From Squalus acanthias (lineage: Eukaryota), in the NCBI GenBank assembly GCA_030390025.1, contig CM059432.1, positions 43,960,001 to 44,024,000 of the forward strand: 64,000 bases of DNA. The letters are read 5' to 3'. The stretch's first letter is position 1. Each line of letters begins with the position of its first letter. A program made the position numbers and the translations under genes. The notes beneath the pieces are model-generated. The model did not search any database. It saw only the letters and a program-made list of their open reading frames with translations, and had not been told where the DNA came from. This document shows, piece by piece, positions 7,430-62,471 of the stretch.

Positions 7430-8949
7430 TTTGGAGGTGATTTTCACTACACTGGAGGTCACTCTCACTTCATTGGAGGTCACCCTCACGACACTGGAGG
7501 TCACTCTCACTTCATTGGAGGTCACTCTCACGACACTGGAGGTCACTCTCACTACATTGGAGGTCACTCTCACTTCATTGGAGGTCACTCTCACGACACT
7601 GGAGGTCACTCTCACGACACTGGAGGTCACTCTCACGACACTGGAGGTCATTCTCACGACACTGGAGGTCACCCTCACGACACTGGAGGTCACCCTCGCG
7701 ACACTGGAGGTCACTCTCACTACACTGGAGGTCACTCTCACTACACTGGAGGTCACCCTCGCGACACTGGAGGTCACCCTCGCGACACTGGAGGTCACCC
7801 TCGCGACATTGGAGGTCACTCTCGCGACCCTGGAGGTCACTCTCACTTCACTGGAGGTCACTCTCGCGACACTGGAGGTCACTCTCGCGACACTGGAGGT
7901 CATTCTCACGACACTGGAGGTCACCCTCACGACATTGGAGGTCACTCTCACTTCATTGGAGGTCACTCTCACTACATTGGAGGTCACTCTCACTACATTG
8001 GAGGTCACTCTCACTTCATTGGAGGTCACTCTCACTTCATTGGAGGTCACTCTCACGACACTGGAGGTCACCCTCGCGACACTGGAGGTCACTCTCACTA
8101 CACTGGAGGTCACTCTCACTACATTGGAGGTCACTCTCACTACATTGGAGGTCACTCTCACTTCATTGGAGGTCACTCTCACTTCATTGGAGGTCACTCT
8201 CACGACACTGGAGGTCACCCTCGCGACACTGGAGGTCACCCTCGCGACACTGGAGGTCACCCTCACGACACTGGAGGTCACCCTCGCGACACTGGAGGTC
8301 ACCCTCGCGACATTGGAGGTCACTCTCACTACATTGGAGGTCACTCTCACTTCACTGGAGGTCACTCTCACTTCATTGGAGGTCACTCTCACTTCATTGG
8401 AGGTCACTCTCACGACACTGGAGGTCACCCTCGCGACACTGGAGGTCACTCTCACTACACTGGAGGTCACTCTCACTACACTGGAGGTCACCCTCGCGAC
8501 ACTGGAGGTCACCCTCGCGACACTGGAGGTCACTCTCGCGACACTGGAGGTCACTCTCGCGACCCTGGAGGTCACTCTCACTTCACTGGAGGTCACTCTC
8601 ACTTCATTGGAGGTCACTCTCACTTCATTGGAGGTCACTCTCACGACACTGGAGGTCACTCTCACTACACTGGAGGTCACTCTCACTACACTGGAGGTCA
8701 CTCTCACTTCACTGGAGGTCACTCTCACTTCACTGGAGGTCACTCTCACTTCATTGGAGGTCACTCTCACTTCATTGGAGGTCACCCTCGCGACACTGGA
8801 GGTCACTCTCGCGACACTGGAGGTCATTCTCACGACACTGGAGGTCACCCTCACGACATTGGAGGTCACCCTCACGACATTGGAGGTCACCCTCACGACA
8901 CTGGAGGTCACTCTCACTTCATTGGAGGTCACTCTCACGACATTGGAGG
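7430..8949. repeat. 21-bp minisatellite, ~72 units, consensus (c/t)tggaggtcac(t/c)ctc(a/g)c(g/t)(a/t)ca
   Basis: Uninterrupted 21-nt period; produces the (TTLEVTL)n and (VRVTSSV)n ORFs. Confidence 0.98.
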
Positions 8950-9243
8950 ATTGTGCGTCTGATCTCCACTTTATTAAATCTGTCATATATCAGATCAGCA
9001 TGGGTGCCGCTTATGCTGTTTCACCTTGGACCTTAAATGAGGAGCAAGATGAGCACCAGCATCAACAGCAGCGCACATTGTTGCCCGGGATGGACTCATC
9101 ACAGCAACATTTAGTTAGGTTGCACGACTGAACCCATCTGGCAGCCACAGCTGAACACACTTGCCACCCGCTCCCCCAGCACAAAGCAGTCCTGCAATCA
9201 ACAAAGTATCCCTTTCACAGACACCCATTGCTCAGAACACTCA

Positions 9244-10485
9244 GGACAAGCGTGGATTAATTAAGGAAAGCCAGCACGGATTTGTTCAAGGCAAATTGTG
9301 TTTAACCAACTTGATCGAGTTTTTTCATGAGGTAACAGAGAGGGTTGATGAGGGTAATGCGGTTGATGTGGAGTACATGGATTTCCAAAAGGCGTTCGAC
9401 AAAGTGTCACATAATAGGCTTGCCAGCAAAGTTGAAGCCCATGGAATAAAAGGGACAGTGGCATCATGGATACGAAATTGGCTAAGTGACAGGAAACAGA
9501 GAGTAGTGGTGAACGGTTGTTTTTCGGACTGGAGGAAGGTATACAGTGGTGTTCCCCAGGGGTCGGTTCTAGGACCACTGCTTTTCTTGATATATATTAA
9601 TGACTTGGACTTGGGTGTACAGGGCACAATTTCAAAATTTGCAGATGACACAAAACTTGGAAGTATAGTGAACAGTGAGGAGGATAGTGATAGACTTCAA
9701 GAGGACATAGTCAGGCTGGTGGAATGGGCGGACACGTGGCAAATGAAATTTAATGCAGAAAAGTGCAAAGTGATACATTTTGGTAGAAAGAATGAAGAGA
9801 AGAAATATAAACTAAAGGGTACAATCCTAAAGGGGGTGCATGAACAGAGAGACCTAGGGGTATATGTGCTGAAATCATTGAAGGTGGCAGGGCAGGTTAA
9901 GAAAGCAGTTAAAAAAGCATACGGGATCCTGGGCTTCATGATTAGAGGTATAGAGTACAAAAGTGTGGAAATGATGATGAACCTGTATAAAACACTGGTT
10001 CGGCCTCAACTGGAGTATTGTGTCCAATTCTGGGCACCGCACTTTAGGAAGGATGTGAAGGCCTTAGAGAGGGTGCAGAAAAGATTTACAAGAATGATTC
10101 CAGGAATGAGGGACTTGAGTTACGTGGATAGCCTGGAGAAGCTGGGGTTGTTCTCCTGAGAGCAGAGAAGATTGAGAGGAGATTTGATAGAGGTGTTCAA
10201 AATCATGAGGAGTCTGGACAGAGTAGACAGAGAGAAACTGTTCCCATTGGCAGAAGTGTCGAGAACCAGAGGACACAGATTTAAGGTGATTGGCGGAAGA
10301 ACCAAAGACAACATGAGGAAAAACTTTTTTACTCAGCGAGTGGTTAGGATCGGAATGCAAAAATTTGCAAGGCTACAAGGAAAGGGCAGGGGAGTGGGAC
10401 TAGCTCAAGTGCTCTTGCAGAGAGCCAGCATGGGCTCAACAGGCCGAATGGCCTTCTTCCATGCTGTAACCATTCTATGATTCTA
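9244..10485 (+). mobile_element. 5'-truncated CR1 LINE (RT domain and 3' UTR)
   Basis: QHGF...DFQKAFDKV...[13 protein letters not shown]...KFADD motifs, stop at 10157-10159, ATTCTATG-type tail. Confidence 0.95.
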
Positions 10486-18449: not shown

Positions 18450-20880
18450 ACATAGGATTACCTGGGATATACAGCACAGAAACAGACCATTCGGCCTAAC
18501 CAGTCCATGCCGGCGTTTATGCTCCACTCGAGCCTCCTCCCGTCTTTCCTCATCTAAATCTATTAGCATAACCCTCTATTCCCTTCTCCCTCATATGTTT
18601 GTCCAGCCTCCCCTTAAATGAATCTATATTATTCGCTTCAACCACTCCCTGTGGTAGCAAATTCCACATTCTCACCACTCTTTGGGTAAAGAAGTTTCTT
18701 CTGAATTCCCCATTGGTTTTCTTGGTGACTATCTTATATTGACGGCCTCTAGTTATGCTCGTCCCCACAAGTGGAAACATTCTCTCTGTATCCACTCTAT
18801 CAAAACCTTTCATAATTTTATAGACCTCTATTAGGTCACCCCTCAGCCTTCTTTTTTCAAGACAAAAGAGACCCAGCCTATTCATCCTTTCCTGATATGT
18901 ATATCCTCGCATTTCTGGTATCATCCTTGTAAATCTTCTCTGCACCCTCTCCAGTGCCTCTATATCCTTTTTATAATATGGTGAACTGAACTGCATGCAG
19001 TACTCTAAGTGTGGTCTAACCAAGGTTCGATGCAGGTTTAGCATAACTTCCCTACTTTTCAATTCAATTCCTCTAGAAATAAATCCTAGTGCTTGGTTTG
19101 CATTTTTAATGGCCTTGCTAACCTGTGGCGCAATTTTTAGTGATTTGTGTATTTGTACTCCGAGATCTCTTTGTTCCTCTACTCCACCTAGACTCGCACC
19201 CTCCAAGTGATAAGTAATCTCCTTATTCTTCCTACCAAAATGTAATACCTCACATTTGTCTGTGTTGAACTTCATTTGCCAATTATTTGCCCATTCTGCA
19301 AGTATATTAATGTACTCCTGTAATTTGTTGCAGTCCTCCTCAGTATTGACTACCCCCCTCAATTTGGTATCATCCGCAAATTTAGAAATTGTGTTTTTGA
19401 TTCCAGTCTAAATCGTTAATGTAAATTGTGAACAGCTGTGGTCCCAGCACTGATCCTTGTGGAACACCACTACCCACCTTCTGCCACTGTGTATAGCTAC
19501 CCTTTACTCCCATGCTCTGCTTTGTGTCTTGAAGCCAGCTAGCAATCCATTCTGCTACTTGTCCCCTGACTGCGCATTCTCTGACCTTATTCATTAGTCT
19601 ATTATGGGGTGCCTTATCGAAGGCCTTTTGAAAATCTAGATAAATTACATCTATTGCCTCTTCAAAAAATTCAATAAGGTTGGTCAAGCAAGATTTTCCC
19701 TTTAGAAATCCATACTGACTATTCATTATTATACTTTTCATTTCTGGATGTTCTTCTATTCTCTCCTTTAGTAGGGATTCCATTATTTTTACTACCACCG
19801 ATGTTAAGCTGACTGGTCTATAATTCCCTGGACATGTTCTATCCCCCTTCTTAAATATAGGTGTTACGTTAGCTATCCGCCAGTCCTCTGGCACTACATC
19901 TTTTTCTAACAAATTATTAAATATGTGTAGTAATGCCTCTGCTATCTCTTCCCTAGATTATTTTAAAATGCATGGATGCAATTCATCCAGACCTGGGGTT
20001 TTATCCTCTTTGAGTTTATTAGTTTATTTAATATATCCCCTTTTTTATTTTAAATGCACTTATCTAATTGCTCATCTCATCATCCAATGTCATGTCCACC
20101 TGTTCTATTTCCCTGGTAAATACCGAAGCGAAATAATGATTTAATATTTCTGCCATTTCCCTATCGTTACCTGTGGTATTGTCCTGTCCCTCCCTTAATG
20201 GCCCTATTCCCATCCCAACCTTCCTTTTTTTATTGATGTGCCTGTAAAATATTTTACTATTTTGTTTTATGTTCCTTGATAATTTAATTTCATAGTTCCT
20301 CTTTGACTTCCTAATTTTTTTTTACTTCTCTCCTAATCCCTTCGTATTTTCTCTTATCATGCACTCCTCTGCTGTCTATATACTTAATGTATGCCTCTTT
20401 CCTTACCCTCAATTGTTTCCTTATGTCTTTATTCATCCATGGAGTCTCATTAGTGTTTAGTTTGTTCTTTCCTTTTAGCGGAATATATTTTTCTTGCACT
20501 CTGTTGAAGACCATTTTAAATGTTTCCCATTGTCGTTCTACATCATTGTTTGCCAATATTGTTGCCCATTTTATCTTCCCAAGTTCTATTCTCAGCCCCT
20601 CAAAATCAGATTTTCTCCAATCTATTAACTTGGTTTTTGTTATTCTTATGTCCTTTGTTGTCATCTTAAAGCATATTATATTATGGTCACTATTGCCTAT
20701 ATGTTCCCCTACTTTTACTTCCCTTATCTGCTCTGGCTCATTCCCCATAACTAGATCCAATAGCGAATCCTCCCTTGTTGGGCTTTTTACATATTGGGTT
20801 AGAAAGGAGTCCTGTAGATATTGTAGGAACTCCATTCCCTTATCCCCTTTACTTACCTCTTCTGTCCAATTAATATCGGA
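18450..20880 (-). mobile_element. 5'-truncated CR1 LINE (APE C-terminus plus RT, frameshifted)
   Basis: ORFs 20311-20889 (SDH motif), 19382-19912 and 18550-19362 with CR1 ORF2 motifs. Confidence 0.95.
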
Positions 20881-24133: not shown

Positions 24134-24140
24134 GAATTTC

Positions 24141-25771
24141 TGTAGAATTCGCAATTATCGCGATTTCATTTTAATAAGGAGAAAACACAAAGTTTCGTTC
24201 AAAACAGCTTTTTATTTCAGCGGAATGCTGTCAGGTTTAAATTGGACACAAGCAGCCTGTAAAATGGCCGCCGCACCTCGTGACAGAACATTCTAGACTT
24301 TTCAACAGGCAGACAAGATGGCGTTCCAATAAACATTTTTTGCAGGGTCGATAAACGATTCAGCACAGTGAAGACAATACACAGGACATTATGGGTTTAC
24401 AGTATAAACATCGATACTGGAATCGGTCTCCCAGGTACAAAGGAAAGCCATCAAGGGCCCATCCAAAGGACATTAATATGCAAACTCCCAACGGCTCTAC
24501 GATGAGAGAGCCGTTAGCAGGTAGTTATACAGGACACTTGGAAGCCCCAAACCCCTCCAGGGGGAACACCGACCGATTTAACAATGGGAGAAATATTAAC
24601 AGGTACTCAAACATTCAGGAGTAGCCCCGAAACCCATTAAGGACAGAGATCACCCATACAGGACATTTTGGGCGCCAAACCGTTAAACAAAAGAATGGAC
24701 ATTGTAGTTGGGCGGGAAACGGAAGAACTGTGCACTATAATTGCAGGCCCAAACCGTCCATTCGCTCTCTTGCTCTTGGCTCTTGCCTCGTGTTCTTGAC
24801 TCTTGCCGCTTGTTGCTGTTATCATCGTGGCTGCTCCTGTGTTTTATCCGGTCGATTCGTAACCTCGTGGCTGCTCCTGTGTAAAAGACTGTTGCAAAGA
24901 CCTATGTTGGTAGCGGGCAGCGGAACCAAAGGCCCGAGATGAGATGAGATGAGAGGAGAAGAGAAGAAGACCTTATCCATCGCCACGGTCAGTAAATCCC
25001 GACTGCGCCTGTAGGTCGATCAGCCAAGTCTTCTCGACAGGAAGTTTTCTTCGTTAAACTTTTAACAAGACATATTGCATCAACGATAACTGGACTGTGC
25101 AAACACATCGTATCAGTGATATTGACAACGGTGCTCCACCATACCTTGTACCCAACCAACAGAGGTCTTCACTACAGCGGACGGTCCAGCCGACTGACCG
25201 AGCAGCAGAAGCAGTAAACAAGTGGGACCAGGAGATCTCCTGACCAACACGTGGGTGCTGCGGTGAAAAACATCCGATCTGCTATTCGGGATTTCTCCGA
25301 GTTATTACGAGTGGTGAGCATGAGTCTCGGGATCCTACGAAGCTAGTTTAGGATAGACATTGATAGGGGAGGGTTTAAAGATTAAGGATATTTGTAATGT
25401 GTGCCCTATTTACGTTGTGCTGGTCGTTCCTCGTTTCCCTAAGAGTGATTATAACTGTTTGTAAGATTGTACTGTCATTAATCTGTGCATATGACATGTA
25501 TTTCATAATTTTAAGTATCATGCAATAAAGATTTTCCATTTCGTACCGTTCAAACCAAGTCTACATGAGTTTTATCTCCATTACTGCTCTCGCATCTAAG
25601 TCCAGTGTCTAGAACCGTAAGGGAGAGTGATTCGAACCACTCACAGGGGTGTCTAGTGTTCCCAGACTGGCTGGAGACCAGGCCTAGACCCGCACTGACA
25701 TACAGGCTGCACAGAGCCGCGTGAATCTCACAGGCTACGAGACACGCAGGGTCAGGAGAGTATCCCTTACA
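24141..25771 (+). repeat. 5' LTR (1631 bp)
   Basis: Direct repeat of 31752-33400. YY1-like sites at 24261 and 24314, TATAAT at 24736, AATAAA at 25524. Confidence 0.97.
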
Positions 25772-25775
25772 GAAA

Positions 25776-27587
25776 ATGGCGACCGCGGCAGGACACTGGC
25801 AGCGAGAGGGTAGTGTGTTAGATTTTGGAATGACTGTACGAAATGTTATGCAGGAAAAGATAGCGGATTATGTGTTTGGAAAGGTTAATCTAACGAAAAA
25901 GTGGATAAGCGAATTGTTAGCGGATAAGAGCCCACTAGAGGCAGCTGAAAGGTGGACGGATAGTAAGGAGCATAAAAAGGCAGTTGAGAAAGCAGTCTGG
26001 CTTATGTGCTACAAAAGGCAGGTTCAGATTTCAAACCAGACCAATACAGCGCTAACCGCTCGAATCAAGCATCTAGAGGAGGAAATGGAGGAGAAGGTTT
26101 CTGGAGGGGAGGCGCTCATTAAGAGTTTAAATGAGTTACGCCAGGAAAGCCAGGAAGTCTCCAGTTACCTTAAAACAAGGGTAGAGTATCTCGAGTGCCA
26201 GATCACTGAAGCAAAATTAAACGAGAGTAGGATGAAGGAAAGATGTAACCGTCAAGCTGCCCAGATAAGAACTCAAGAAGAGAGCTTAATGGGGGTTAGG
26301 TCGGCGTATAAGTTGGCCCTTGAGGATAAGTTTCAGGGAGCCGACCATAGCGCCTGCGAAAAAGAGATAGAGAGCCTCAAAAAGGCCGTGAATAATGCGA
26401 ACGGCATGGTGTGCCTTATTAATCCGTCGGCACGCCAGCCGCTAGTAAATGAGAGATTTAGAAATTCCCCACCAAGTAAAGCAGAAGAAGTAGTAGCCAG
26501 TGCGCCCTCCGCGCCACCCAGCTATTCAGAAACCTGGGTTAGGGAGGAAGCAACGGAAGAAGCAAAAGAGCCCGTTGAAAAGGAGGTAGAAAAGGGATCG
26601 TTGTATCCAGTAACGGGGATTAAAAGGGGCCCAAGCAGAAACGGTGGGGAAGAACCGGGGGATCTCCTCGGACAGCTGGTGTTGCCTCACAGTTCACATC
26701 AGCTGAGGGCCATGATAAACCACGTAAGGAAGCTGACCGAGATAGACGACCCTTCCGTACATTTCAGGGAAGTTGAGCAAGCCGCAGCCATCAACGGCTG
26801 CGATGATGGGGAGACAGCAAAAATGCTGCTGTTCTCATTAGATAGCTCGGTCCTTCAGTGTCTCTCAGGCGATAGCAAGAGGGGTAATAAAAGTTATGAG
26901 GAATTGAAAAATGAGGTCCTAGAAGTAGTGGGAGCGAACGACGGAGGTCCGTTTGCTAGAGTGGGACAGACAGTGCAGATGGAGGGAGAACCCCCGAAGG
27001 TTTTTGCCGACAGGCTGTGGCCAGTATATGAGCGCAGCTGTCTAGGTGCGCCCGAGCGCGAAGATGTGGAAGGCGCCGCTTTAATTCATTGGCTTAGGTG
27101 CATCATAGCCAACAGTTTACCAGCCGTTAGAGAGCAGGCAAAAGCCTGGTTCGATCCCAATGACCTCAACCTTACGGAAGAGTCGGTCTTGAATCGACTC
27201 ACGTTAGGTTACCGTAACATAAGGGGTATGACGACACGTCCCTTTAAGGGAAGAGTACATGAGGTACGACCCGCAGCCCCGACTCAAAGAGAGTGGCATC
27301 AGGAGGGTAATCGCGCCCCACAGGCAAGTAATGCCTGTTACGGGTGTGGGAAGACAGGGCACTGGCGCAAGCACTGCAGGAACCCTTGGAAGGATTCCAA
27401 GGATAAAAATCCCGCGGTCCGAGCCCAGGCGCCTGTCCCGGCTAAGGAAGCCAAGGCACCCACCTCCCCCGACGACCTCGAAGCAGTGTTAGGAGCCATG
27501 CGCAAGATGGTTTTGAATGCGCGTGGACAGGTGGCGGTCGCAACCGGCCCCGTAGGTGCCGCAGGACCGTCTAATAGTGCCCCATGA
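25776..27587 (+). CDS. gag: Gag-like polyprotein, 603 aa
   Basis: N-terminal coiled coil, PSAPPSY late motifs (26505-26525), helical capsid-like middle region, CCHC knuckle CYGCGKTGHWRKHC (27336-27377); no disabling mutation. Confidence 0.9.
   Translation: MATAAGHWQREGSVLDFGMTVRNVMQEKIADYVFGKVNLTKKWISELLADKSPLEAAERWTDSKEHKKAVEKAVWLMCYKRQVQISNQTNTALTARIKHLEEEMEEKVSGGEALIKSLNELRQESQEVSSYLKTRVEYLECQITEAKLNESRMKERCNRQAAQIRTQEESLMGVRSAYKLALEDKFQGADHSACEKEIESLKKAVNNANGMVCLINPSARQPLVNERFRNSPPSKAEEVVASAPSAPPSYSETWVREEATEEAKEPVEKEVEKGSLYPVTGIKRGPSRNGGEEPGDLLGQLVLPHSSHQLRAMINHVRKLTEIDDPSVHFREVEQAAAINGCDDGETAKMLLFSLDSSVLQCLSGDSKRGNKSYEELKNEVLEVVGANDGGPFARVGQTVQMEGEPPKVFADRLWPVYERSCLGAPEREDVEGAALIHWLRCIIANSLPAVREQAKAWFDPNDLNLTEESVLNRLTLGYRNIRGMTTRPFKGRVHEVRPAAPTQREWHQEGNRAPQASNACYGCGKTGHWRKHCRNPWKDSKDKNPAVRAQAPVPAKEAKAPTSPDDLEAVLGAMRKMVLNARGQVAVATGPVGAAGPSNSAP
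25777..25794 (+). promoter_or_regulatory. Primer-binding site complementary to the 3' end of tRNA-Arg(UCG)
   Basis: TGGCGACCGCGGCAGGAC is the reverse complement of ...GTCCTGCCGCGGTCG-CCA, the 3' end of vertebrate tRNA-Arg-TCG as I recall it; a 5-nt spacer separates it from the LTR. Confidence 0.85.
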
Positions 27588-28709
27588 CTAGAGCCCACGC
27601 AGCCTGCCTACCTGTGTCCTTTTAAAAGACACGCACAGAAGGGGGTCTGCGGTGAGGAGGCCAGGTTAAAAGAGCAGGCCTTGCGGGAGGAGAACGCCCG
27701 CTTAATAGGGAAAATAGATGGGCTGGAAGGGCAGCTTAGAGAGCAGACCCTGCGGGAGGAGAACGCCCGATCAATGGGAAAGTTAGACGTGCTCAGGCTA
27801 GAAGCGCAGCTTAGTGAGATAAAAGCAGCCTACAGGGTAGCCAGGAGCAGGGAGTATGAGGATTTAAAACAGGATAGAAATCTGCAGCCTCCAGCAGGTG
27901 AGATTTCACAGAAACAAGCAGGGGCGGTGGCCTGTCTTAAGGGAGGGGCCAGACCTGCGAGTGGGGAAGCACAGCCCCAGGTAGGACCACAAGGCACACA
28001 GGCAGGCATAGCAGCTTGCATCAGGGGAAGGGACATCCCGGACGATCATGCAGCGTTTTTCTGGAGTTGGGGGTTAGATGACGAGGACCCCAGGGTACCC
28101 TGGTCAGATGAGGATAGTGCAGATGAGCATAGTGATGATGACGGGTGGTTTCTGAGGAACGGTCTGGGAGGATTGGGGCCGCTAGGTAGAGATCCATACG
28201 GGGTGGACACACAAGCTGCAGGTCCCGACAGCAGGAGGAAGGAGCTAGAGGAGGCCGGGCCAGCCGCTATGTGGTTCCCAGAGGTGTGGCCGCCCGCTTT
28301 GAACGTCCAGTCCTCAGGGGAGGCAGAGTTCACGAGTGAAGGGCCGCCTGCTGGGCCGAGCAGGGCGGGGCCCCGAACTGCCAGCCCCGAGGTAAGGGAG
28401 GCGGAGTCAGCGGAGGCGGGGCTGGCGCCTGTGATGGAACCCCAGGTCATCCCGTTGAAGGTCTCGGGACCCGGTCCGTCCGTCACGGAGCCCCCGCCCA
28501 TAGCAATTCCCCGTAGGTCAAGCAGAGTACCCCAGCCCAGGAAGATGTGGTCAGGTCCACAGGCTGCCCCAGGGCGTAAGTTTCAGGTTAAGATAACCCG
28601 GGTAGAGACAGGCCACATCGAAGCAGTAACAGGCTGCGGCAGATCAGAGGGAAGGGTCAGTGCCCTCCCACCGTCGGGAAGAGCTCGCAGCAGCCTTCTC
28701 AGGATTTAA
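27588..28709 (+). CDS. In-frame post-Gag ORF (373 sense codons), probably expressed by UGA readthrough; not Pol
   Basis: Same frame as gag, open from the codon after TGA (27585-27587) to TAA at 28707-28709. TGA-CTAG context; no D(T/S)G, YxDD or HHCC/DDE motifs. Confidence 0.7.
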   Translation, partial: LEPTQPAYLCPFKRHAQKGVCGEEARLKEQALREENARLIGKIDGLEGQLREQTLREENARSMGKLDVLRLEAQLSEIKAAYRVARSREYEDLKQDRNLQPPAGEISQKQAGAVACLKGGARPASGEAQPQVGPQGTQAGIAACIRGRDIPDDHAAFFWSWGLDDEDPRVPWSDEDSADEHSDDDGWFLRNGLGGLGPLGRDPYGVDTQAAGPDSRRKELEEAGPAAMWFPEVWPPALNVQSSGEAEFTSEGPPAGPSRAGPRTASPEVREAESAEAGLAPVMEPQVIPLKVSGPGPSVTEPPPIAIPRRSSRVPQPRKMWSGPQAAPGRKFQVKITRVETGHIEAVTGCGRSEGRVSALPPSGRARSSLLRI

Positions 28710-28973
28710 AGGGGCCGCCCTGAGAACGGGCGGCATTGTAAAGTTATTAGTTTAAGGTTTTAAGTAGTTTTAATAAGGTTAAGTTTGTAGTGTTTTTAAC
28801 AGATGACGACATAATGATGGGAGTTTTAAGGCTAGGTTTAGAGGAAGTCTATTTAGCAAACGTTGAAGTTTACGTGAGGCGAGGTCAGGGGACCCGCTCA
28901 CCCTTCACAAAAGCCAGAGACTTTTTGCGAGGCTGGCTACCTCATTCTATCTGATCACAGGAACCAAGGAAGG

Positions 28974-31325
28974 ATGGAACGACTTCTAGTTTTGCTCGTG
29001 GCAATCGGATGTGGATTGGCCTATCGGGGCCTCACCAAGGATGTCGTGGTGTTTGGATGTTCCGGGGACACGGCCCCCATCGCGGTGGATGGGACCGGAA
29101 GACGGAAGGCAGAAGGGACCAGCACCTATTTCCACAAGGGAAGGTGGCCAGGATGGCTGGGAACGAACTCAACGGAGTATTCCAGCACATCGGGGTTCGC
29201 CTATAAAGAGACTTCTTTAATGTGCCCCAAAGTACGGATCATCGCACCCAGGATCAGCGTCACCGTCGGCAAACGGATTTGTTTGACCTGCAGTGGGAAT
29301 GTCCCATTGAGCCGATGGTGGTGGCTGCGAAAGCTGAGCAAAACTATGAGGAACTCTTCGGTTGAGTGGGAGCGACTGGGTAATAATACCCATCGGACAA
29401 TTACGGGGACAGATGGACAAGTGAAAGTCTGTTGGGACAAATGGTGGGAACCGGATGAGGGGATTTATGTTTGTATGTGGGGGTCAAAGTACGTTTGCCC
29501 CAAAGGCATCTCCATATTCTTTATTAACCAGTGGCAGGATAACGGACAGGGGATGAGGTGGGATGCGAGCACCAGGGGGTGCGGAGCCCCATACTCTCCG
29601 ATCCCAGTAAATGCCACTGAGCTCATTACGCGCCCACGCAAAGCCCCGCCCACGATTCCGGTGGTTGTAACTGAGGAAGAAGGGTGCCCTAAAACTAGTA
29701 AGGGACCCGGGAACGGTTTGGTACTGGTCCCCACAGACCAGATACTATTTCAGGGGGTACATTACGCGGTGGCCTCGGTGATTTTAAATCTCACTGAGGT
29801 ACGGTTACCAGAGTGGTGCCCCAAAAAGACGGAACAGTTGTACCAGGTCCTGTTGACCAAGATGTTCAGGCAATTTTACGAGTTTGATTTTGCAGAAATT
29901 GATAAGACAAGTTTATACACCGCACCGCAGGAAGCTTTGGATCAAGTAGGGAGGCAAAGAAGGGGTTTGGTGAACGATGCGTTCACTGCTTTTAACACAG
30001 GGACATCTGTGGTCAACGCTCTAGACAGTGTGGAGCTGCAGACCCAGATTAATGGTTTAAAAACACAGTTAAAGGATATTCTTACAGATGAGAATAAAGT
30101 GGTAGGGTCGGGTCTGCACGAGGACCAAGCCATGACACTACACTTAAAGGAAATCATAGCAGAGCTGGAGAAACATGCGCGTACGGTAAATGCCCTGATT
30201 AGGGAAGATCGGAATGCATCCGATCAGGCGGCGCAGAACGAGGTGTGCGTGCTTTACGGGGCGTGGTTACTGGGCGAGGGCCGCAGTAATTTGGAGGATT
30301 TAAAACAAGGTTTGGTCCCGTCCTGGATAAGTAACAAACACCTGCGGGCGCTCCACCCTTTTCAGAATGCATTAAGTCCGTGCCAGCTCAGGCTAGCTTC
30401 AGAAGCTTACCCAGTCCCCGTGGACTGCGGACGTTCAAACCATACTATTATGGGAATAGTATTACGCATGCCGGTTTTGGGCAACACAGCAAAGCCCGCC
30501 CCGGTGTATCGGGTAGAGAACATTGGTGTCATTCAGGGGGGAGCCCACATTCGTTATGCAGCGGTTCCACCTTACGTCATCCGCTGGGAGCAAACGATGA
30601 CAGGTACAGATCTCTCTGGTTGTCGTGGCAGGGGAGCACACATAATACTGTGCCCCCAGCACTTGAATGCCTTTTTAACACCACAGTGCGGGTTCAGAAC
30701 GGCTGGCGCCAAGTCCATGAATTGCACCATGGAGGCAATGGCACAAGATCATGTGCCTCCGCAGGTAGCATACATCGGGGGTGGAACATATTGTGTTACC
30801 ACTGCAGCGCAACACTACCAGCATGGAAACCGTAGCCGGTGTCCGGTGAGTGACAGCAGTTTCTGTTTTAAACCCAGGGCTGAAGTTCAAGTAGCACAAC
30901 AGCGAATTATCCCAATCCCTGAACCATCCACTGTTCATCTCACAGTAAAAGAGAATTTTACCGACTTGCAGCGATTTGTCGCACATTTTGGGTACCTCAT
31001 TCCCCCTCTCCCCGAGCATTTAACCAAACTTCTGAAAGCCGTCGCGGTGTCACAAAAGCATTTCTATACATTAGAACAGAAAACCGTCGAGATAGGTACA
31101 GACATTTTGGACATAGTGGTTCCACCGTGGTGGAATCTGTTCACGAATATTGAAGTGCCCTCATGGGTCAGAATAGCCTCCCACATTTTAGTCGTCTGTC
31201 AAGTGTTTATTGTAGTATACCTTTTGTTCATACATTGTAAAAGAGACAAGCGCCTCACCAAGCATGAGAACACGGGAGAGTGGCGAGAACGTTACGTGCG
31301 CGTGCACGATGAGAGCGCAGTGTAA
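28974..31325 (+). CDS. env: Envelope glycoprotein, 783 aa: signal peptide, Ig-like domain, furin site, F-type class I fusion ectodomain, TM anchor
   Basis: MERLLVLLVAIGCGLA signal; C..W..DEGIYVC; RQRR|GLVNDAFTAF (29952-29963); heptad repeat; Cys-rich region; TM IASHILVVCQVFIVVYLLFI; about nine N-glycosylation sequons. Confidence 0.92.
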   Translation: MERLLVLLVAIGCGLAYRGLTKDVVVFGCSGDTAPIAVDGTGRRKAEGTSTYFHKGRWPGWLGTNSTEYSSTSGFAYKETSLMCPKVRIIAPRISVTVGKRICLTCSGNVPLSRWWWLRKLSKTMRNSSVEWERLGNNTHRTITGTDGQVKVCWDKWWEPDEGIYVCMWGSKYVCPKGISIFFINQWQDNGQGMRWDASTRGCGAPYSPIPVNATELITRPRKAPPTIPVVVTEEEGCPKTSKGPGNGLVLVPTDQILFQGVHYAVASVILNLTEVRLPEWCPKKTEQLYQVLLTKMFRQFYEFDFAEIDKTSLYTAPQEALDQVGRQRRGLVNDAFTAFNTGTSVVNALDSVELQTQINGLKTQLKDILTDENKVVGSGLHEDQAMTLHLKEIIAELEKHARTVNALIREDRNASDQAAQNEVCVLYGAWLLGEGRSNLEDLKQGLVPSWISNKHLRALHPFQNALSPCQLRLASEAYPVPVDCGRSNHTIMGIVLRMPVLGNTAKPAPVYRVENIGVIQGGAHIRYAAVPPYVIRWEQTMTGTDLSGCRGRGAHIILCPQHLNAFLTPQCGFRTAGAKSMNCTMEAMAQDHVPPQVAYIGGGTYCVTTAAQHYQHGNRSRCPVSDSSFCFKPRAEVQVAQQRIIPIPEPSTVHLTVKENFTDLQRFVAHFGYLIPPLPEHLTKLLKAVAVSQKHFYTLEQKTVEIGTDILDIVVPPWWNLFTNIEVPSWVRIASHILVVCQVFIVVYLLFIHCKRDKRLTKHENTGEWRERYVRVHDESAV

Positions 31326-31742
31326 TGGGAAAATGGCGTCACTCCCGCTCGCCACGTGCGCCGCGGAAGTTTGTACTCATTGTAAATACGTTGGAAACTC
31401 GACATGTTTAAGAGTTGGGATTTGTTTATTTTGGTGATGGTGTTGATTGTTTGGTTTTTGGGTTTTGTTTTTCCTTCCCTTGAATAAAAGACAAATATAC
31501 AGGTGATGCGTGAGGTATCGGCCTGGTTACGCCGGAAAGGAAAACAAGTGGTGTAAGTTTAAGGGCAAATGATGCCTACGGTGATATAAAATGTGATTTT
31601 CTTGGGAAATAAGGACGACACAGAGACCCTAGTCAAGTTAAAATTTATGGGATTAATTTACTGGATTCGGAGTGAAATCGAGATAAGATTGCTCACCACT
31701 GAGATTTTTTTTGATACGATAAGCGGAGTTATTCGCATCAAC

Positions 31743-31751
31743 AGGAGGGAC
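31743..31751 (+). promoter_or_regulatory. Short polypurine tract
   Basis: AGGAGGGA(C) immediately before the TG of the 3' LTR. Confidence 0.7.
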
Positions 31752-33400
31752 TGTAGAATTCGCAATTATCGCGATTTCATTTTAATAAGGAGAAAACACA
31801 AAGTTTCGTTCAAAACAGCTTTTATTTCAGCGGAATGCTGTCAGGTTTAAATTGGACACAAGCAGCCTGTAAAATGGCCGCCGCACCTCGTGACAGAACA
31901 TTCTAGACTTTTCAACAGGCAGACAAGATGGCGTTCCAATAAACATTTTTGCAGGATCGATAAACGATTCAGCACAGTGAAGACAATACACAGGACATTA
32001 TGGGTTTACAGTATAAACATCGATACTGGAATCGGTCTCCCAGGTACAAAGGAAAGCCATCAAGGGCCCATCCAAAGGACATTAATATGTAAACTCCCAA
32101 CGGCTCTACGATGAGAGAGCCGTTAGCAGGTAGTTATACAGGACACTTGGAAGCCCCAAACCCCTCCAGGGGGGAACACCGACCGATTTAACAATGGGAG
32201 AAATATTAACAGGTACTCAAACATTCAGGAGTAGCCCCGAAACCCATTAAGGACAGAGATCACCCATACAGGACATTTCGGGCGCCAAACCGTTAAACAA
32301 AAGAATGGACATTGTAGTTGGGCGGGAAACGGAAGAACTGTGCACTATAATTGCAGGCCCCAAACCGTCCATTCGCTCTCTTGATTCTCTCTGGCCTCTT
32401 GCTCTTGGCTCTTGCCTCGTGTTCTTGACTCTTGCCGCTTGTTGCTGTTATCATCGTGGCTGCTCCTGTGTTTTATCCGGTCGATTCGTAACCTCGTGGC
32501 TGCTCCTGTGTAAAAGACTGTTGCAAAGACCTATGTTGGTAGCGGGCAGCGGAACCAAAGGCCCGAGATGAGATGAGATGAGAGGAGAAGAGAAGAAGAC
32601 CTTATCCATCGCCACGGTCAGTAAATCCCGACCGCGCCTGTAGGTCGATCAGCCAAGTCTTCTCGACAGGAAGTTTTCTTCGTTAAACTTTTAACAAGAC
32701 ATATTGCATCAACGATAACTGGACTGTGCAAACACATCGTATCAGTGATATTGACAACGGTGCTCCACCATACCTTGTACCCAACCAACAGAGGTCTTCA
32801 CTACAGCGGACGGTCCAGCCGACTGACCGAGCAGCAGAAGCAGTAAACAAGTGGGACCAGGAGATCTCCTGACCAACACGTGGGTGCTGCGGTGAAAAAC
32901 ATCCGATCAGCTATTCGGGATTTCTCCGAGTTATTACGAGTGGTGAGCATGAGTCTCGGGATCCTACGAAGCTAGTTTAGGACAGACATTGATAGGGGAG
33001 GGTTTAAAGTTTAAGGATATTTGTAATGTGTGCCCTATTTACGTTGTGCTGGTCGTTCCTCGTTTCCCTAAGAGTGATTATAACTGTTTGTAAGATTGTA
33101 CTGTCATTAATCTGTGCATATGACATGTATTTCATAATTTTAAGTATCATGCAATAAAGATTTTCCATTTCGTACCGTTCAAACCAAGTCTACATGAGTT
33201 TTATCTCCATTACTGCTCTCGCATCTAAGTCCAGTGTCTAGAACCGTAAGGGAGAGTGATTCGAACCACTCACAGGGGTGTCTAGTGTTCCCAGACTGGC
33301 TGGAGACCAGGCCTAGACCCGCACTGACATACAGGCTGCACAGAGCCGCGTGAATCTCACAGGCTACGAGACACGCAGGGTCAGGAGAGCATCCCTTACA
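31752..33400 (+). repeat. 3' LTR (1649 bp)
   Basis: By eye, about 8 substitutions, four 1-bp indels and one 18-bp indel relative to the 5' LTR; AATAAA at 33153. Confidence 0.97.
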
Positions 33401-34343
33401 TTTCAATTTAATTGTTCCATGTGAACGAGTCTATGCAGTTCATTCCTGCATTGTGGCTCTGTTTTAAATTCTACAGCTGTACCCTCACAATGACTTTCTC
33501 TACCCCCGCCCCAGACACAGCACATCAATTGCTCGTGGAACTCGCACATTTGTCCTGCCCAATAATACTAAATTTAGCTCACCCCATGATTTCTGGCGGA
33601 GTCAGCATTGGGATAATTGGGTGGGTGGAAGTCCCGCCCCACTGCATTTCCAGCAGCAGTTCACAGGACTGAGAATTTCAAGGCCTGTGCTTTTAGTCAA
33701 GGTTTGTATTTTTCAGGTTCTGTTTCTATGGATGTAGTAGTGACAAATGTCGTAAAAAATAAATCTGGACAAAGCAACAATTTCACACAAATAAGAACAT
33801 CTTCAACACCTGTACTCAGTTGGAATGTTGGTTTTGATATTATTATAAGTTTTAGATGCGCATTACTACAGGGCCAATTCCATGCTCCTAGTGGGGAGCG
33901 GCACATGGAGGGAGCACATCATGGTTGCACAGTCCATGGTTTTCGGTCTATTAATTTTAATAGGTGGACAATCACAGCCTGTGCACTCACAATGTACTGG
34001 CTCCCCAGTGGGTGCACAGATTCAGCTCTTGTATCAACCACTCGTGTAATACTAAGACAGAATTTTATCACTGCTATGCTCAAGAGAAGTGACAGTCTGT
34101 AGGACTTAAAATCATTAAAGTTCCTAAATTGAGATGTACCAGTTACATCACATCTGTTATGCAAATTGGAGGCATTAATTTAGTTCAACAACAAAATCGA
34201 AAAGTTTAAAGAAATTAGGAGATAAGGTTCATAGTTGATTGTCTCAGCGAATAAAGGTTAAAAGTTTAAGCACAATAGAAATTGATGAACGATTTAACGC
34301 ATCGTAATACTAATACAGATTATGTTGAAAGAATAGCACTGAC

Positions 34344-40492: not shown

Positions 40493-42435
40493 GTAACACA
40501 CAGCTGTAAGAAGATCTAAACATTCTAATTACTAACTATTTACAAACCGCAGGTGATAATTAGAGCTTTCAAAATACAACTCATTTGTTTTTGTTTGAAA
40601 AAATGAAGTCAAATCATTAGGAAAGATACCAGGGAGAACTTTCAACTTCAGCAGGAGTGGAAAACTTGTGGTATCGATCAACTCCCCATTATACATCCCG
40701 GTCGATTTTCCTTTCCATTGACTTACTTAAGAACATAACATAAGAAATAGGAGCAGGAGTAGGCCATTTGGCCCTTCGAGCCTACTCCACCATTCAATAA
40801 GATCTTGGTTGTTCTTCTACCTCAACTCCACTTTCCTGAACTATCCCCATATCCCTTGATTCCCTTAATATTCAAAAATCTATCGATCTCTGTCTTGAAT
40901 ATACTCAACGACTAAGCCTCCACAGCCCTCTGGGGTAGAGAATTCCAAAGATTCACCACCCTCTGAGTGAAGAAATTTCTCCTCATCTCAGTCCGAAATG
41001 GCCGACCCCTTATTCTGAGACTGTGACCCCTGGTTCTAGACTCCCCAGCCAGGGGAAACATCCTCCCTGCATCTACCCTGTCAAGCCCTGTAAGAATTTT
41101 GTATGTTTGAATGAGATCACCTCTCATTCTTCTAAACTCCAGAGAATATAGGCCTAGTCTACTCAATCTCTCCTCAAAGGACAATACCCCCATCCCAGGA
41201 ACCAGTCTGGTGAACCTTCGTTGCACTCCCTCTATGGCAAGTATATCCTTCCTTAGGTAAGGAGACCAAAACTGCACACAATACTCCAGGTGTGGTCTCA
41301 CCAGGGCCCTATATAATTGCATTAAGACGTCTTTACTCTTATACTCAAATCCACTTGTAATAAAGGCCAACATACCATTTGCTTTCCTAATTGCTTGCTG
41401 TACCTGCAGGTTAACTTTCAGTGATTTGTGTACAAGGACACCCAGGTCCCTCTGAACACCAACATTTCCCAATCTCTCACCATTTAAAAAATGCTCTGCT
41501 TTTCTATTTTTCCTACCAAAGTGGATAACTTCACATTTCTCCACATTATATTCCATTTGCCATGTTCTTGCCCACTCACTTAGCCTGTCTATATCCCCTT
41601 GAAGCCTTCGTGCATCCTCCTCACAAGTTACATTCCCACCCAGCTTTGTATCATTAGCAAACTTGGATATATTACATTTGGTCCCCTCATCCAAATCATT
41701 GATGTAGATTGTGAATAGCTGAGGCCCAAGCACTGATCCTTGCGGTACCCCACTTGTTACAGCCTGCCAACCCGAAAATGACCCATTTATTCCTAATCTC
41801 TATTTTCTGTCTGTTAACCAATCCTCAATCCATGCTAGTATATTACTCCCAATCCCATGAGCCCTAATTTTGTTTCATAACCTCTTGTGTGGCACCTTAT
41901 CGAATGCCTTCCGAAAATCCAAATACACCACATCCACTGGTTCCCCCTCATCTATTCTGCTTGTTACAACCTCAAAAATCAGATTTGTCAAACACGATTT
42001 CCCTTTCATAAATCCGTGCTGACTGCCCAATCCTATTATTATTTTCTAAGCATCCTTAATAATAGATTCTAGCATTTGTCCTACTACTGATGTCAGGCTA
42101 ACTGGTCTGTAGTTCCCCATTTTCTCTCTGCCTCCTTTCATAAATAGTGGGGCTACATTTGCTACCTTCCAATCCTTGGGGAATGTTCTAGAATCTAGGG
42201 AATTCTGGAAGATTAATATCAGTGCATCCACTATCTCTATAGCCACCTCTTTCAAAACCCTAGGATGTAGGCCATCAGGTCCAGGCGATTTATCGACTTT
42301 CAGTCCCATTAATTTCTCCAGTACTATTTTTTTACTAATACTAATTTCTTTGAGATCCTCATTCTTGCTAGACCCTTGGTTCTCCACTATTTCCGTGAAG
42401 TTTTTTGCGTCTTCTTCCGTGAAGACAGACACAAA

Positions 42436-47525: not shown

Positions 47526-50500
47526 GGTAGCATAGTAGTAATGTCACTGGGCTAGTAATCCAGAGGCCTGGAAACATAGAAGATAGGAGCAGGAGTAGGC
47601 CATTCGGCCCCTCGAGCCGGCTCCGCCATTCGATGAGATCATGGCTGATCATCCAAACTCAGTACCCTGTACCTGCCTTCTCCCCATATCCTTTGATACC
47701 TTTAGCTTTAAGAATTATATCTAACTCATTCTTAAATATATTTAATGACTTGGCCTCAACTACCTTCTGTGGTAGAGAATTCCACAGGTTCACCACTCTC
47801 TGGGTGAAGAAATTCTTCCTCATTTCTGTCCTAAATGGCTTACCCCTTATCCTTAGATTATGACCCCTGGTTCTGGACTCTCCGACCATCGGGAACATTC
47901 TTCCTGCATCTAGTTTGTCCAGACCTGTCAGAATTTTATATGCTTCGATGAGATCCCCTCTCATTCTTCTATACTCCAGCGAGTATAAGCCCAATCGACC
48001 CAATCTCTCCTCATATGTCATTCCTGCCATCCCAGGTATCAGCCTTGTGAATCTTCGCTGAACTCCCTCCATGGCAAGAACATCCTTCCGCAGATAAGGC
48101 GACCAAAACTGCACACAATACTCAAGGTGTGGTCTCACCAAGGCCCTGTACAACTGCAGCAGGACATCCCTGTTCCTATACTCAAACCCTTTCGCTAGGA
48201 AGGCCAACATACCATTTGCCTTCTTCACCGCCTGCTGCACCTGCATGCTTACCTTCAGCGACTGGTGCACAAGGACACCCAGGTCTCGTTGCACTTCCCC
48301 TTCTCCCAATCTATTGCCATTCAGATAATAGTCTGCCTTTCTGTTTTTGACACCAAAGTGGATAACCTCGCATTTATCCACGTTATATTACATCTGCCAC
48401 GCTTCTGCCCACTCACCCAACCTGTCCAAATCATCCTGGAGTTTCTCGGTATCCTCCTCGCAGCACACACTCCCACCCAGCTTTGTGTCATCTGCAAACT
48501 TGGAGATATTACATTTAGTTCCCTTATCTAGATCATTAATGTATATTGTGAATAGCTGGGGTCCAAGGACCGATCCCTGCGGTACCCCACTAGTCACTGC
48601 TTGCCACTCGGAAAAAGACCCATTAATTCCTACTCTTTGCTTTCTGTCCGCCAACCAGTTCTCTATCCAAGTCAATACCTTGCCCCCAATCCCATGTGCC
48701 TTAACTTTACACGCTAATCTCTTATGCGGGACCTTATCGAAAGCCTTTTGAAGGTCCAAATACACCACATCTACTGGTTCTCCCTTATCTATTTTCCCAG
48801 TTACATCCTCAAAAAATTCCAGTAGATTAGTCAAGCACGATTTACCTTTTGTAAATCCATGTTGACTTTGTCCGATCCTGTCACTGTTTTTCAAGTGCTC
48901 AGCTATTACATCCTTTATAATGGACTCTAGCATTTTCCCCACTACCGATGTCAGGCTTACCGGTCTGTAATTCCCCGCTTTCTCTCTACCACCCTTTTTG
49001 AATAGTGGGGTAACATTAGCTACCCTCCAATCCATGGGTACAGTTCCAGATTCCATTGAATGTTGGAAGATGATCAGCAATGCATCTACTATTTCTAGGG
49101 CCACTTCCTTAAGTACCCTAGGATGTAAATTATCAGGCCCTGGGGATTTATCGGCCTTCAATCCCATCAATTTCCCTAACACCATTACCCTGCAAATACT
49201 GATTTCTTTCAGTTCCTCCCTTTCATCAGACCCTATGTTCTCCAACATCTCTGGGAGGTTATTTGTGTCCTCCTTTGTGAAGACAGAACCAAAATATGCA
49301 TTTAATTGGTCTGCCATTTCTTTGTTCCCCATTATAACTTCCCCCGCTTCTGACTGCAAGGGACCTACACTTGATTTCACTAATCTTTTTCTCTTCACAT
49401 ATCTATAAAAACTCTTACAGGACTAATGATCCAGAGAAGTGAGTTCAAATCCCACCACGGCAGCTGGGGAATTTAAATTCAGTTAATTAAATAAATCTGG
49501 AATAATTACCAGTATCAGTAATAGTAACCATGAAACTATCGAATTGTCATAAAAACCCATCTGGTTCACTAATGTCCTTTAGGGAAGGAAATCTGCCGTG
49601 ACTCCAGAACCACAGCAATATGGTTGACTCTTAACTGCCCTCTGAAATGGCCTAGCAAGCCACTCAGTTGTAACAAACCGCTACGAGAAACAATAAAAAG
49701 AATGAAACCGGATGGACCACCCGGAATCGACCTCGGCACCGGCTACGGACACGGCAATGGCACACCCAGCCCAGTCGACCCTGCAAAGCCCTCCTCATCA
49801 ACATCTGGGGCCTTGTACCAAAATTGGGAGAGCTGCCCACAGACTAGTCAAGCAACAGCCTGACATAGTCATACTCACAGAATCATACCTTTCAGCCAAT
49901 GTCCCAAACACCTCCATCACCATCCCAGGGTATGTTCTGTCCCACCAGCAGGACAGACCCACCAGGGGTGGCGGCACAGTGGTATACAGTCGGGAAGGAG
50001 TGGCCCTGGGAGCCCTCAACATTGACTCCGGACTCCATGAAGTCTCATGGCTTCAGGTCAAGCATGGGCAAGGAAATCTCCTGCTTATTACCACCTACCG
50101 CCCTCCCTCAGTTGATGAATAAGTGCTCCGCCATGTTGAACACCACTTGGAAGAAGCACTGAGAGTAGCAAGGGCACAGAATGTAACTCTGGGTGGGAGA
50201 CTTCAATGTCCATCACCAAGAGTGACTCGGTACCACCACTACTGACCGAGCTGGCCGATTCCTGAAGGACATAACTGCCAGTCTGGGCCTGTGACAGGTG
50301 GTGAGAGAACCAACATGAGAGAAAACCTACTTGACCTCGTCCTCACCAATCTACCTGTCGCAGATGCATCTGTCCATGATCGTATTGGTAGCAGTGACCA
50401 CCGCACAGTCATTGTGGAGATGAAGTCCCGTCTTCACACTGAGGACACCCTCCATCGTGTTGTGTGGCACTACCACTGTGCTAAATGGGATAGATTCAGA

Positions 50501-52650
50501 ACAGATCTAGTAGCTCAAAACTGGGCATCCATGAAGCGCTGTGGGCCATCATCAGCAGCAGAACTGTATTCCACCACAATCTGTAACCTCATGGCCCGGC
50601 ATATCCCTCACTCTACCATTACGATGAAGCCAGGGGACCAACCCTGGTTCAATAAGGAGTGTAGAAGAGCATGCCAGGAGCAGCACCAGGCGTACCTAAA
50701 AATGAGGTGCCAACCTAGGGAAGCTGCAACACAGGACTAAAAGCATGCTAAAAAGCAGAAGCAGCATGCTATAGACAGGGCTAAGCGATCCCACAATCAA
50801 CGGATCAGATCAAAGCTCTGCAGTCCTGCCACATCCAGTCGTGAATGGTGGTGGACCATCAAACAACTAACGGGAGGGGGAGGCTGCATGAATATCCCCA
50901 TCCTCAATGATGGTGGAGCTCAGCACGTGAGTGCAAAAGACAAGGCTGAAGCATTTGCAACCAACTTCAGCCAGAAGTGCTGAGTGGAAGATCCATGTTG
51001 GCCTGAGGTCCCTACCATCACAGAAGCCAGTCTTCAGCCAATTCAATTCACTCCACGTGATATCAAGAAACGGCTGAGCGCACTGGATACAGCAAAGGCT
51101 ATGGGCCCCGACAACATCCCGGCTGTCGTGCTGAAGACTTGTGCTCTAGAACTAGCCACACCTCTAGCCAAGCTGTTCCAGTACAGCTACAACACTGGCA
51201 TCTATCCGATAATGTGGAAAACTGCCCAGGTATGTCCTGTCCACAAAAAGCAGGACAAATCCAACCCGGCCAATTACCGCTCCATCAGTCTACTCTCAAT
51301 CATCAGCACAGTGATGGAAGGTGTCATGGACAGTGCTATCAAGCGGCACTTACTCACAAATAACCTGCTCACTGATGCCCAGTTTGGGTTCCGCCAAGAC
51401 CACTCGGCTCCAGACCTCATTACAGCCTTGGTCCAAACATGGATAAAGGAGCTGAATTCCAGAGGTGAGGTGAGAGTGACTGCCCTTGACATCAAGGCAG
51501 CATTTGACCGAGTGTGGCAACAAGGAGCCCTAGTAAAACTGAAGTCAATGGGAATCGGGGGGAAAACGCTCCACTGGCTGGAGTCATACTTAGCACAAAG
51601 GAAGATGGTTGTGGTGGTTGAAGGTCAATCATCACAGACCCAGGACATCGCTGCAGGAGTTCCTCAGGGCAGTGTCCTAGGCCCAACCATCTTCAGCTGT
51701 TTCACCAATGACCTTCCCTCCAACATAAGGTCAGAAATGGGGATGGTCGCTAATGACTGCACAGCATTCAGCGCCATTCACAAATCCTCAGATAATGAAG
51801 CAGTCCATGCCCGCATGCAACAAGACCTGGACGATGTTCAGGCTTGGGCTGATAGGTGGCAGGTAACATTCGTGCCTCAGAAGTGTCAGGCAATGACTAT
51901 CTCCAACAAGCGAGAGTCTAACCACCTCCCCTTGACATTCAACGGTATTACCATCGCCGAATCCCCCACCATCAACATCCTGGGGGTCACCATTGACCAG
52001 AAACTTCACTGGACCAGCCACATAAATACTGTGGCAACAAGAGCAGGTCAGAGGCTAGGTATTCTGCGGCGAGTGTCTCACCTCCTGATTCCCCAAAGCC
52101 TTTCCACCATCTACAAGGCACAAGTAAGGAGTGTGATGGAATACTCTCCACTTGCCTGGATGAGTGCAGCTCCAACAACACTCAAGAAGCTCGACACCAT
52201 CCAGGACAAAGCAGCCCGCTAGATTGGCACCCCATCCACCACCTGAAACATTCACTCCCTCCACCACCAGCGTACCATGACTGCAAAGTGTACTATCTAC
52301 AAGATGCACTGCAGCAACTCGCTGATGCTTCTTCGGCAGCACCTCCCAAACCCGTGACCTCTTCCACCTAGAAGGACAAGGGCAGCAGGCGCATGGGAAC
52401 ACCACCACCTCCAAGTTCCCCTCCAAGTCACACACCATCCTGACTTAGAAGTATATCGCCGATCCTTTATCGTCGCTGGGTCAAAATCCTGGAACTCCCT
52501 CCTAACAGCACTGTGGGAGTACCTTCACCACACGGACTGCAGTGGTTCAAGAAGGCAGCTCTCCACCACCTTCTCGAGGGCAATTAGGGATGGGCAATAA
52601 ATGTTGGCCTTGCCAGCGACGCCCACATCCCATCAACAAATTTTTAAAAA
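47526..52650 (+). mobile_element. Near full-length CR1-group LINE of a second family (APE plus RT, nonsense-disrupted) with a tRNA-like 5' head; itself interrupted by a CR1
   Basis: [47 protein letters not shown] motif degenerated to VAND; multiple stops. Confidence 0.88.
47573..49420 (-). mobile_element. 5'-truncated young CR1 LINE
   Basis: ORFs 48388-49398 and 47659-48381 are separated by a single stop; RT motifs intact (KFADD). Confidence 0.95.
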
Positions 52651-62334: not shown

Positions 62335-62471
62335 CCAGTTCTGACAAAGGGTCATCGACCTGAAACATTAACTCTGTTTCTCTCTCCACAGATGCTGCCT
62401 GACCTGCTGAGTATTTCCAGCATTTTCTGTTTTTATTTCAGATTTCCAGCATCCGCAGTATTTTGCTTTTG
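62335..62471 (+). mobile_element. Short Penelope-type insertion (hammerhead core mutated to CTGACAA)
   Basis: 12-bp TSD TAACAAATGTCC (62323-62334, 62472-62483); same family as 59167-59291. Confidence 0.85.

Follow-up and report, generated by a model that had tools for sequence, protein, structure and literature searches.

What becomes of a Gag-Pol switch in a provirus that encodes no pol enzymes? This question is raised by a 64,000-nucleotide (nt) stretch of Squalus acanthias DNA (assembly GCA_030390025.1, contig CM059432.1, positions 43,960,001 to 44,024,000, forward strand), hereafter the window, whose own numbering is used throughout. It holds a 9.26-kb provirus at 24141-33400 with the order LTR-gag-X-env-LTR, where LTR is a long terminal repeat and X is the open reading frame (ORF) directly behind gag. 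The gag stop, UGA followed by CUAG, has the context of type II stop-codon readthrough. We consider it probable that this stop was inherited as a Gag-Pol readthrough switch and would still leak into X, giving a Gag-X protein of 977 residues. An inherited switch is likely because the stop position appears ancestral, X occupies the pol slot, and gag genes of lokiretroviruses also end in TGA-CTA. The last of these points, an apparent UGA-CUA junction in published lokiretrovirus sequences, is the most solid new observation of this analysis.

The gag stop and the frame behind it

The junction comprises the following features.

25776-27587, plus strand: gag, 603 residues, with an N-terminal coiled coil, a probable capsid region, a single CCHC zinc knuckle and a TGA stop
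27585-27591, plus strand: TGA-CTAG, the type II readthrough context (TGA 27585-27587, CTAG 27588-27591)
27588-28709, plus strand: ORF X, in frame with gag and 373 codons long; its first ATG is codon 63, and it is likely what remains of the pol frame
27594-27687, plus strand: predicted hairpin beginning 6-7 nt past the stop, judged by folding z-scores

A preliminary description, made from the letters of the window, had reported that gag ends in TGA-CTAG, that 31 stop-free codons follow and that a 977-residue Gag-X fusion could result. All three statements are borne out: positions 27588-27680 read LEPTQ...KEQA, and the frame is open to the TAA at 28709, giving 603 + 1 + 373 residues. The count holds because Gag relatives share the N-terminus that starts at the ATG overlapping the primer-binding site, a start kept in skate and other relatives at 37-52% identity. 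The same description had joined these codons to a 342-residue ORF, which is indeed in frame, but it does not mark a gene start, since it begins at TTG 27681, not an ordinary eukaryotic start codon; we reject this start as an artefact of the bacterial code. The first in-frame ATG of X lies at 27774, in a weak context with T at -3. As at type II sites, UGA-CUAG is thus followed by a long in-frame ORF that lacks a start of its own.

How far such an arrangement could arise by chance depends on the length considered. While the first 31 codons of X alone are open in 29% of 20,000 shuffles, the whole 373-codon frame is open in none of 20,000, and the other two plus-strand frames across X contain 24 and 22 stops. 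From base composition, any one stop would have the form TGA-CTAG with a probability of about 0.0013, for a motif picked post hoc; the window has two occurrences of TGACTAG on its plus strand.

The type II motif UGA-CUAG is described in PMC4132726 and PMC3542737. The provirus shares UGA-CUAG and a purine before the stop with the alphavirus replicase and with AQP4, OPRL1, OPRK1 and MAPK10 (PMC3159437, PMC4132726). In reporters, UGA-CUA alone yields 1.5% readthrough, and four genes with UGA-CUAG yield 7-31% (PMC4132726). Type II sites typically have a 3' stem-loop that begins ~8 nt past the stop. Alphavirus readthrough is boosted 3- to 14-fold by such a stem-loop (PMC3159437); here a possible hairpin follows a spacer of 6-7 nt, but its folding scores are not significant, so we do not accept it as a stimulator, and an Rfam search gave no match above the gathering score.

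Is the stop a private mutation of this copy? We compared six full-length close Gag relatives from three lineages, as proteins: three skate loci (LOC144598870, LOC144592542 and LOC144612253; 50-52% identity), P0011 (45%), and P0012 and P0042 (37-38%). All six stop 12-13 residues past the same conserved motif, as here, and within one residue of the stop position of the window Gag. The stop is therefore not a private mutation, and judging from these proteins its position is ancestral. The sense codon in other copies that would betray a private nonsense change was not found in these relatives, and that reading now appears largely refuted. Sequencing runs point in the same direction. Twenty runs from 10 studies (organisms A-G) contained 57-76% of the sampled words, and contigs of three of them, X6, X13 and X20 (organisms A, B and G), were compared with the window copy. 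In all three the junction bin is covered, and no difference falls at 27585-27591 among the 40 best-supported of 400 differences, a set in which window-private differences near the stop do appear (27639 and 27815). No listed contig piece spans the gag stop with 31 letters on either side. A raw RNA run, X21 (organism H), gave no aligned reads and does not weigh either way.

Frame X and the lokiretrovirus junctions

Within X, the following parts can be told apart.

27588-27650, plus strand: first ~20 codons of X, a putative remnant of the pol leader with an approximate boundary, preceding the Gag-like segment
27605-27628, plus strand: candidate splice acceptor, a pyrimidine tract plus AG, one of three in 27500-29000
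27714-27869, plus strand: segment resembling the Gag coiled coil (X residues 43-94), recognised with a profile of Gag relatives
27962-28709, plus strand: tail of X rich in proline, glycine and acidic residues, likely the 3' end of pol, with an integrase-end-like motif at 28548-28595

Judged by these parts, X is likely a chimera of ~20 codons of pol leader, ~100 codons of a Gag-like helix containing a 69-nt internal duplication (27684/27753), and a pol tail of ~250 codons. X residues 43-94 are recognised by a profile of 26 Gag relatives with E 7.9e-7, a score reached by 0 of 1000 shuffles, although this control is lenient in that shuffling destroys heptad spacing; the best single match to the segment is a whale-shark Gag fragment. 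The motif in the tail resembles the C-terminal end of integrase in lokiretrovirus Pol sequences (PMC7947760 supplement); it was chosen post hoc, is matched by 1 of 200,000 shuffles and occurs nowhere else in the six frames of the window. Because X combines a Gag-coiled-coil-like piece with an integrase-end-like motif, it probably represents a pol frame that has suffered a deletion.

The contigs of run X20 bear on the same structure. At ~27655 their summed depth, which does not equal copy number, falls from 40.7 to 10.5, and in one contig 241 different letters precede a match that begins at 27962. The depth drop and this loose end fit relatives in which the two ends of X are shared and its Gag-like middle (27656-27961) is not. 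No protein relatives of X were found in a word search of proteins of 205-653 residues, in the ESM Atlas (best score 0.80) or in Pfam. X and its own Gag do not match in a pairwise BLASTP, nor is there nucleotide similarity between X and the provirus's own gag, so the Gag-like piece is probably old or comes from a related subfamily. Two other identities were considered for X. That of a novel gene is rejected, given the two recognisable pieces, and that of the lokiretrovirus accessory gene smc was dropped, as smc precedes gag in the PMC7947760 supplement.

The same supplement provides junctions from the closest described group that has this plan. It contains seven lokiretrovirus entries with a separately annotated gag, whose frames we read by eye. 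TGA-CTAG ends gag in Ofa, Pyo and Sau and TGA-CTAA in Dcl, Lro and Bsp, while Tfu has TGN-CTA; TGA-CTA is thus present in six of the seven. Cne, annotated for pol only, likewise has TGA-CTAG. Behind the stop, the frame runs unbroken to a protease active-site motif in Ofa, Cne, Pyo and Sau, to the annotated pol start in Dcl and Lro, and to the conserved protease N-terminus in Bsp, whose consensus shifts frame further on. Several junctions also share a similar short peptide after the stop. Four junctions came from a search for the motif; those of Dcl, Lro, Bsp and Tfu were reached from the pol start, as was Ape, which has no gag.

Readthrough at an in-frame stop past the Gag zinc knuckle, with the pol frame directly behind, is also the arrangement of gamma- and epsilonretroviruses (PMC3542737). 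Theirs is the type III context UAG-G/R, and, unlike them, the provirus has a frame without enzymes behind its stop. UGA as such is not new at this position. It is shared by the gag-pol junctions of SSSV, ZFERV, RMEV and XtERV-S (PMC13517186, PMC8278194), the last with a TGA (PMC8278194). The junctions given in the available part of PMC13517186 are UAG-G/R or UGA-AGA, UGA-CGA and UGA-AGU; UGA-CUA is not among them, and lokiretroviruses go unmentioned there. The main text of PMC7947760, as far as available, mentions neither readthrough nor stop codons nor frameshifting. In the literature searched, with subscription papers and Repbase outside its scope, we found no paper on lokiretrovirus readthrough and no UGA-CUA at a retroviral gag-pol junction. 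UGA at the gag-pol junction is therefore already known, and UGA-CUA there is new within that literature.

Several features bring the provirus close to lokiretroviruses (PMC7947760): the plan LTR-gag-(pol)-env, a coiled-coil ("smc") front of Gag, an F-type Env with an RXXR site, a gag ending in TGA-CTA followed by the pol frame, and the integrase-end-like motif. It differs from them in having no pol enzymes and in the CCHC knuckle of its Gag. A screen based on reverse transcriptase (RT) detected lokiretroviruses in 0 of 6 cartilaginous-fish genomes (PMC7947760). The provirus resembles lokiretroviruses at the gag junction, and kinship is a candidate explanation for an element with no RT by which to place it. 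Zebrafish BHIKHARI offers a further comparison (bioRxiv 2024.03.25.586437). Bik-1 and Bik-2 are, like the provirus, young and non-autonomous, and they are lokiretrovirus relatives with a coiled-coil Gag of ~600 residues; unlike the provirus, Bik-2 lacks pol and env and Bik-1 is a single long ORF, and no readthrough frame is described in the available part of that report.

The provirus and its surroundings

The remaining features of the provirus are these.

24137-24140 (left) and 33401-33404 (right), plus strand: 4-bp target-site duplication
24141-25771, plus strand: 5' LTR, 1631 bp, with TGT...ACA ends and AATAAA at 25524
25777-25794, plus strand: primer-binding site, overlapping the gag ATG at 25776
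28974-31325, plus strand: env, with a signal peptide, a possible Ig-like region, an RQRR cleavage site and the character of an F-type fusion protein
31739-31751, plus strand: polypurine tract
31752-33400, plus strand: 3' LTR, 1649 bp

With its near-identical LTRs, primer-binding site, polypurine tract, target-site duplication, intact gag and env and no pol enzymes, the provirus is a non-autonomous LTR element with env. A scan of its six frames revealed no protease, reverse-transcriptase or integrase-core motifs. The two LTRs differ by 8 mismatches and 22 gap columns over 1651 alignment columns, and the insertion is therefore young. The primer-binding site is presumably that of tRNA-Arg(UCG). 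The gag start codon overlaps it, just 4 nt past the LTR end (region 25772-25794).

Gag has an evident N-terminal coiled coil. Its knuckle matches zf-CCHC with E 0.31, and a Gag profile matches nucleocapsid knuckles with E 9e-7. The AlphaFold model has a mean predicted local distance difference test score (pLDDT) of 42.9, and a Foldseek search with this low-confidence model gave no match at E 0.001. Named relatives of Gag and Env come from skate, catshark, horn shark, whale shark and sawshark; a more remote one is from Xenopus. Among the gene predictions, P0023 and P0034 (whale shark) and P0009 and P0010 (sawshark) have Gag or Env pieces fused together or to host genes (Niban 1-like, cadherin-related 5-like); these fusions are probably annotation artefacts.

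Upstream of env there is a candidate splice acceptor at 28960. The F-type assignment of Env follows a match to the ESM Atlas Fusion_gly cluster (Fusion glycoprotein F0) with a score of 0.93 and 207 of 256 language-model features shared, a score that is not specific, given that errantivirus Env clusters score alike; a Pfam scan of Env gave no PF00523 match. The N-terminal region (29200-29500) has weak Ig-domain matches, to JAM-A and antibody light chains (E ~1), and the AlphaFold model of Env is uninformative (pLDDT 29.3). Compared with its skate relatives, Env is 75-80% identical and Gag 51%. Retroviruses usually show the opposite, and the greater conservation of Env may reflect exchange of env between subfamilies.

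Elsewhere in the window, five Pfam RVT_1 frames flank the provirus (9155-10159, 18550-19407, 40912-41799, 48388-49422 and 50984-52222), likely fragments of repeats of the long interspersed nuclear element (LINE) type. Directly upstream of the first of these, ~72 copies of a 21-nt unit (7432-8949) are open in several frames and read as a long coiled coil; this array may be a LINE ORF1 region. Furthermore, there is a near-perfect palindrome at 55964-56216, with 126-nt arms that are 95% complementary and 1 nt apart, and a related copy at 62335-62434. The palindrome is likely a miniature inverted-repeat transposable element.

Readings of the junction

If the gag stop is an inherited switch, the course of events would be as follows. 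The enzyme-coding middle of pol would have disappeared and a Gag-like helix would have taken its place in frame, with ~20 leader codons and a floppy integrase tail as the leftovers. A near-cognate tRNA would read UGA at ~1-10%, a range taken from other genes, so that a few ribosomes per hundred would continue into X and complete the 977 residues. Gag-X would be a minor product and mostly a by-product, with a frame that tends to stay and a sequence under weak constraint, and the provirus would borrow its enzymes from helpers.

A number of observations weigh against this account. First, the shared motif may be convergent, because the CCHC knuckle of the provirus Gag is not seen in the displayed Gag ends of lokiretroviruses and because, among the 20 of 31 Gag matches whose source was looked up, there is no named lokiretrovirus protein and none from a named ray-finned fish. 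About 10 lokiretrovirus entries, moreover, consist of one fused gag-pol frame and stand outside our junction count. Within the provirus family, conservation of the TGA-CTAG letters themselves is indicated indirectly, by close copies only; searches of viral and metagenome contigs found no DNA of relatives. The hairpin past the stop has z-scores of -1.74 (100 nt) and -0.87 (70 nt) and ranks 8th of 111 folding windows, and X has a candidate splice acceptor inside it. The substitutions in X give no sign of purifying selection: among the 40 best-supported of 400 differences, 2 of 14 in X are silent, against a neutral expectation of 0.30, while gag has 10 of 19 and env 4 of 6 silent (gag and env together 14 of 25 versus 2 of 14, Fisher p 0.017). 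None of these substitutions makes a stop, which says nothing at such a number.

The length changes in X tell a different story. They measure 69 nt (window), 39 nt (three runs) and 21 nt (X20), all multiples of three (p ~0.04); of the 27 indels between run contigs and window copy 12 are listed, and the others could include frameshifts in X. The change of 39 nt is a duplication that keeps the frame and lies close to the 3' end of X (28623-28660), present in contigs of X6, X13 and X20 and absent from the window copy. The signals on the usefulness of Gag-X thus disagree, with length changes that keep the frame on one side and no silent excess on the other. For the conservation that the preliminary description proposed to check, this means that the stop position is kept in the relatives and the TGA-CTAG letters show no listed difference in the three runs, while the substitutions in X do not follow suit. 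Its broader proposal, of a former Gag-Pol switch now yielding Gag-X, is partly supported: it gains from the conserved stop, the pol-like X and the lokiretrovirus TGA-CTA, though not from those substitutions.

In an alternative scenario, which we regard as possible though unlikely, Gag-X is a selected working protein, dosed as a minor form of Gag by the leaky stop, in which a second Gag-type coiled coil and an integrase tail would help this helper-dependent family to package or mobilise its own RNA. Besides the three frame-keeping length changes, this would explain why 373 codons are open across two putative junctions, why runs of organisms A, B and G contain X, and why just 2 of the 14 listed differences in X fall in its first third (p 0.10); a disordered tail, furthermore, can be useful without constraint on its sequence. 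There is also a precedent in the mouse intracisternal A-particle (IAP) element I-delta-1, non-autonomous like the provirus, where a deletion has created a fusion of Gag with a Pol remnant that acts in cis (PMC6466679). That fusion is constitutive, part of gag has been removed and env is absent, whereas the provirus has a whole Gag, an intact env and its extension behind a leaky stop. Selection on Gag-X has against it the lack of a silent excess in X, the lack of any protein relative of X in the searches given above, and the youth of the family (8 LTR mismatches), by which the open frame may be merely inherited.

Ribosomes might also reach X by other routes, the stop context being incidental. 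Complex retroviruses express accessory frames through splicing, and the pyrimidine-rich tract at 27605-27628 would serve as an acceptor (AG at 27628); internal initiation could use the ATG at 27774. We find these routes improbable. The ATG has T at -3, and none of the 8 listed contig joints is GT..AG, a weak point given that taking X6 and X13 for RNA is a guess. Both routes leave unexplained the 14 in-frame codons that precede the acceptor and lie behind a known readthrough motif common to lokiretrovirus gag stops. Least tenable, and in our view highly improbable, is the view that a private nonsense change interrupts one long Gag-X frame, or that the context arose by chance, for which the easily open first 31 codons and the two TGACTAG occurrences might be cited, against the six relatives that stop at the same place, the three runs without a well-supported difference there and the low joint probability of the context.

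We therefore return to the inherited switch as the reading that we favour. In its widest form, which we put forward tentatively and consider rather doubtful as a whole, both lokiretroviruses and the family of this provirus would use an alphavirus-type UGA-CUA switch between Gag and Pol, and a parasitic pol-less branch would have kept it to dose a new chimera of whole Gag, second Gag coiled coil and integrase tail, which would help it to hijack the enzymes of its helper. The UGA-CUA junctions would indicate how the sister group of the retroviruses likely makes its enzymes. If Gag-X is not selected, the gag stop of the provirus would be a well-preserved fossil of that switch; if it is, a helper-dependent element would have turned a recoding signal to a second use, the dosing of a new protein.

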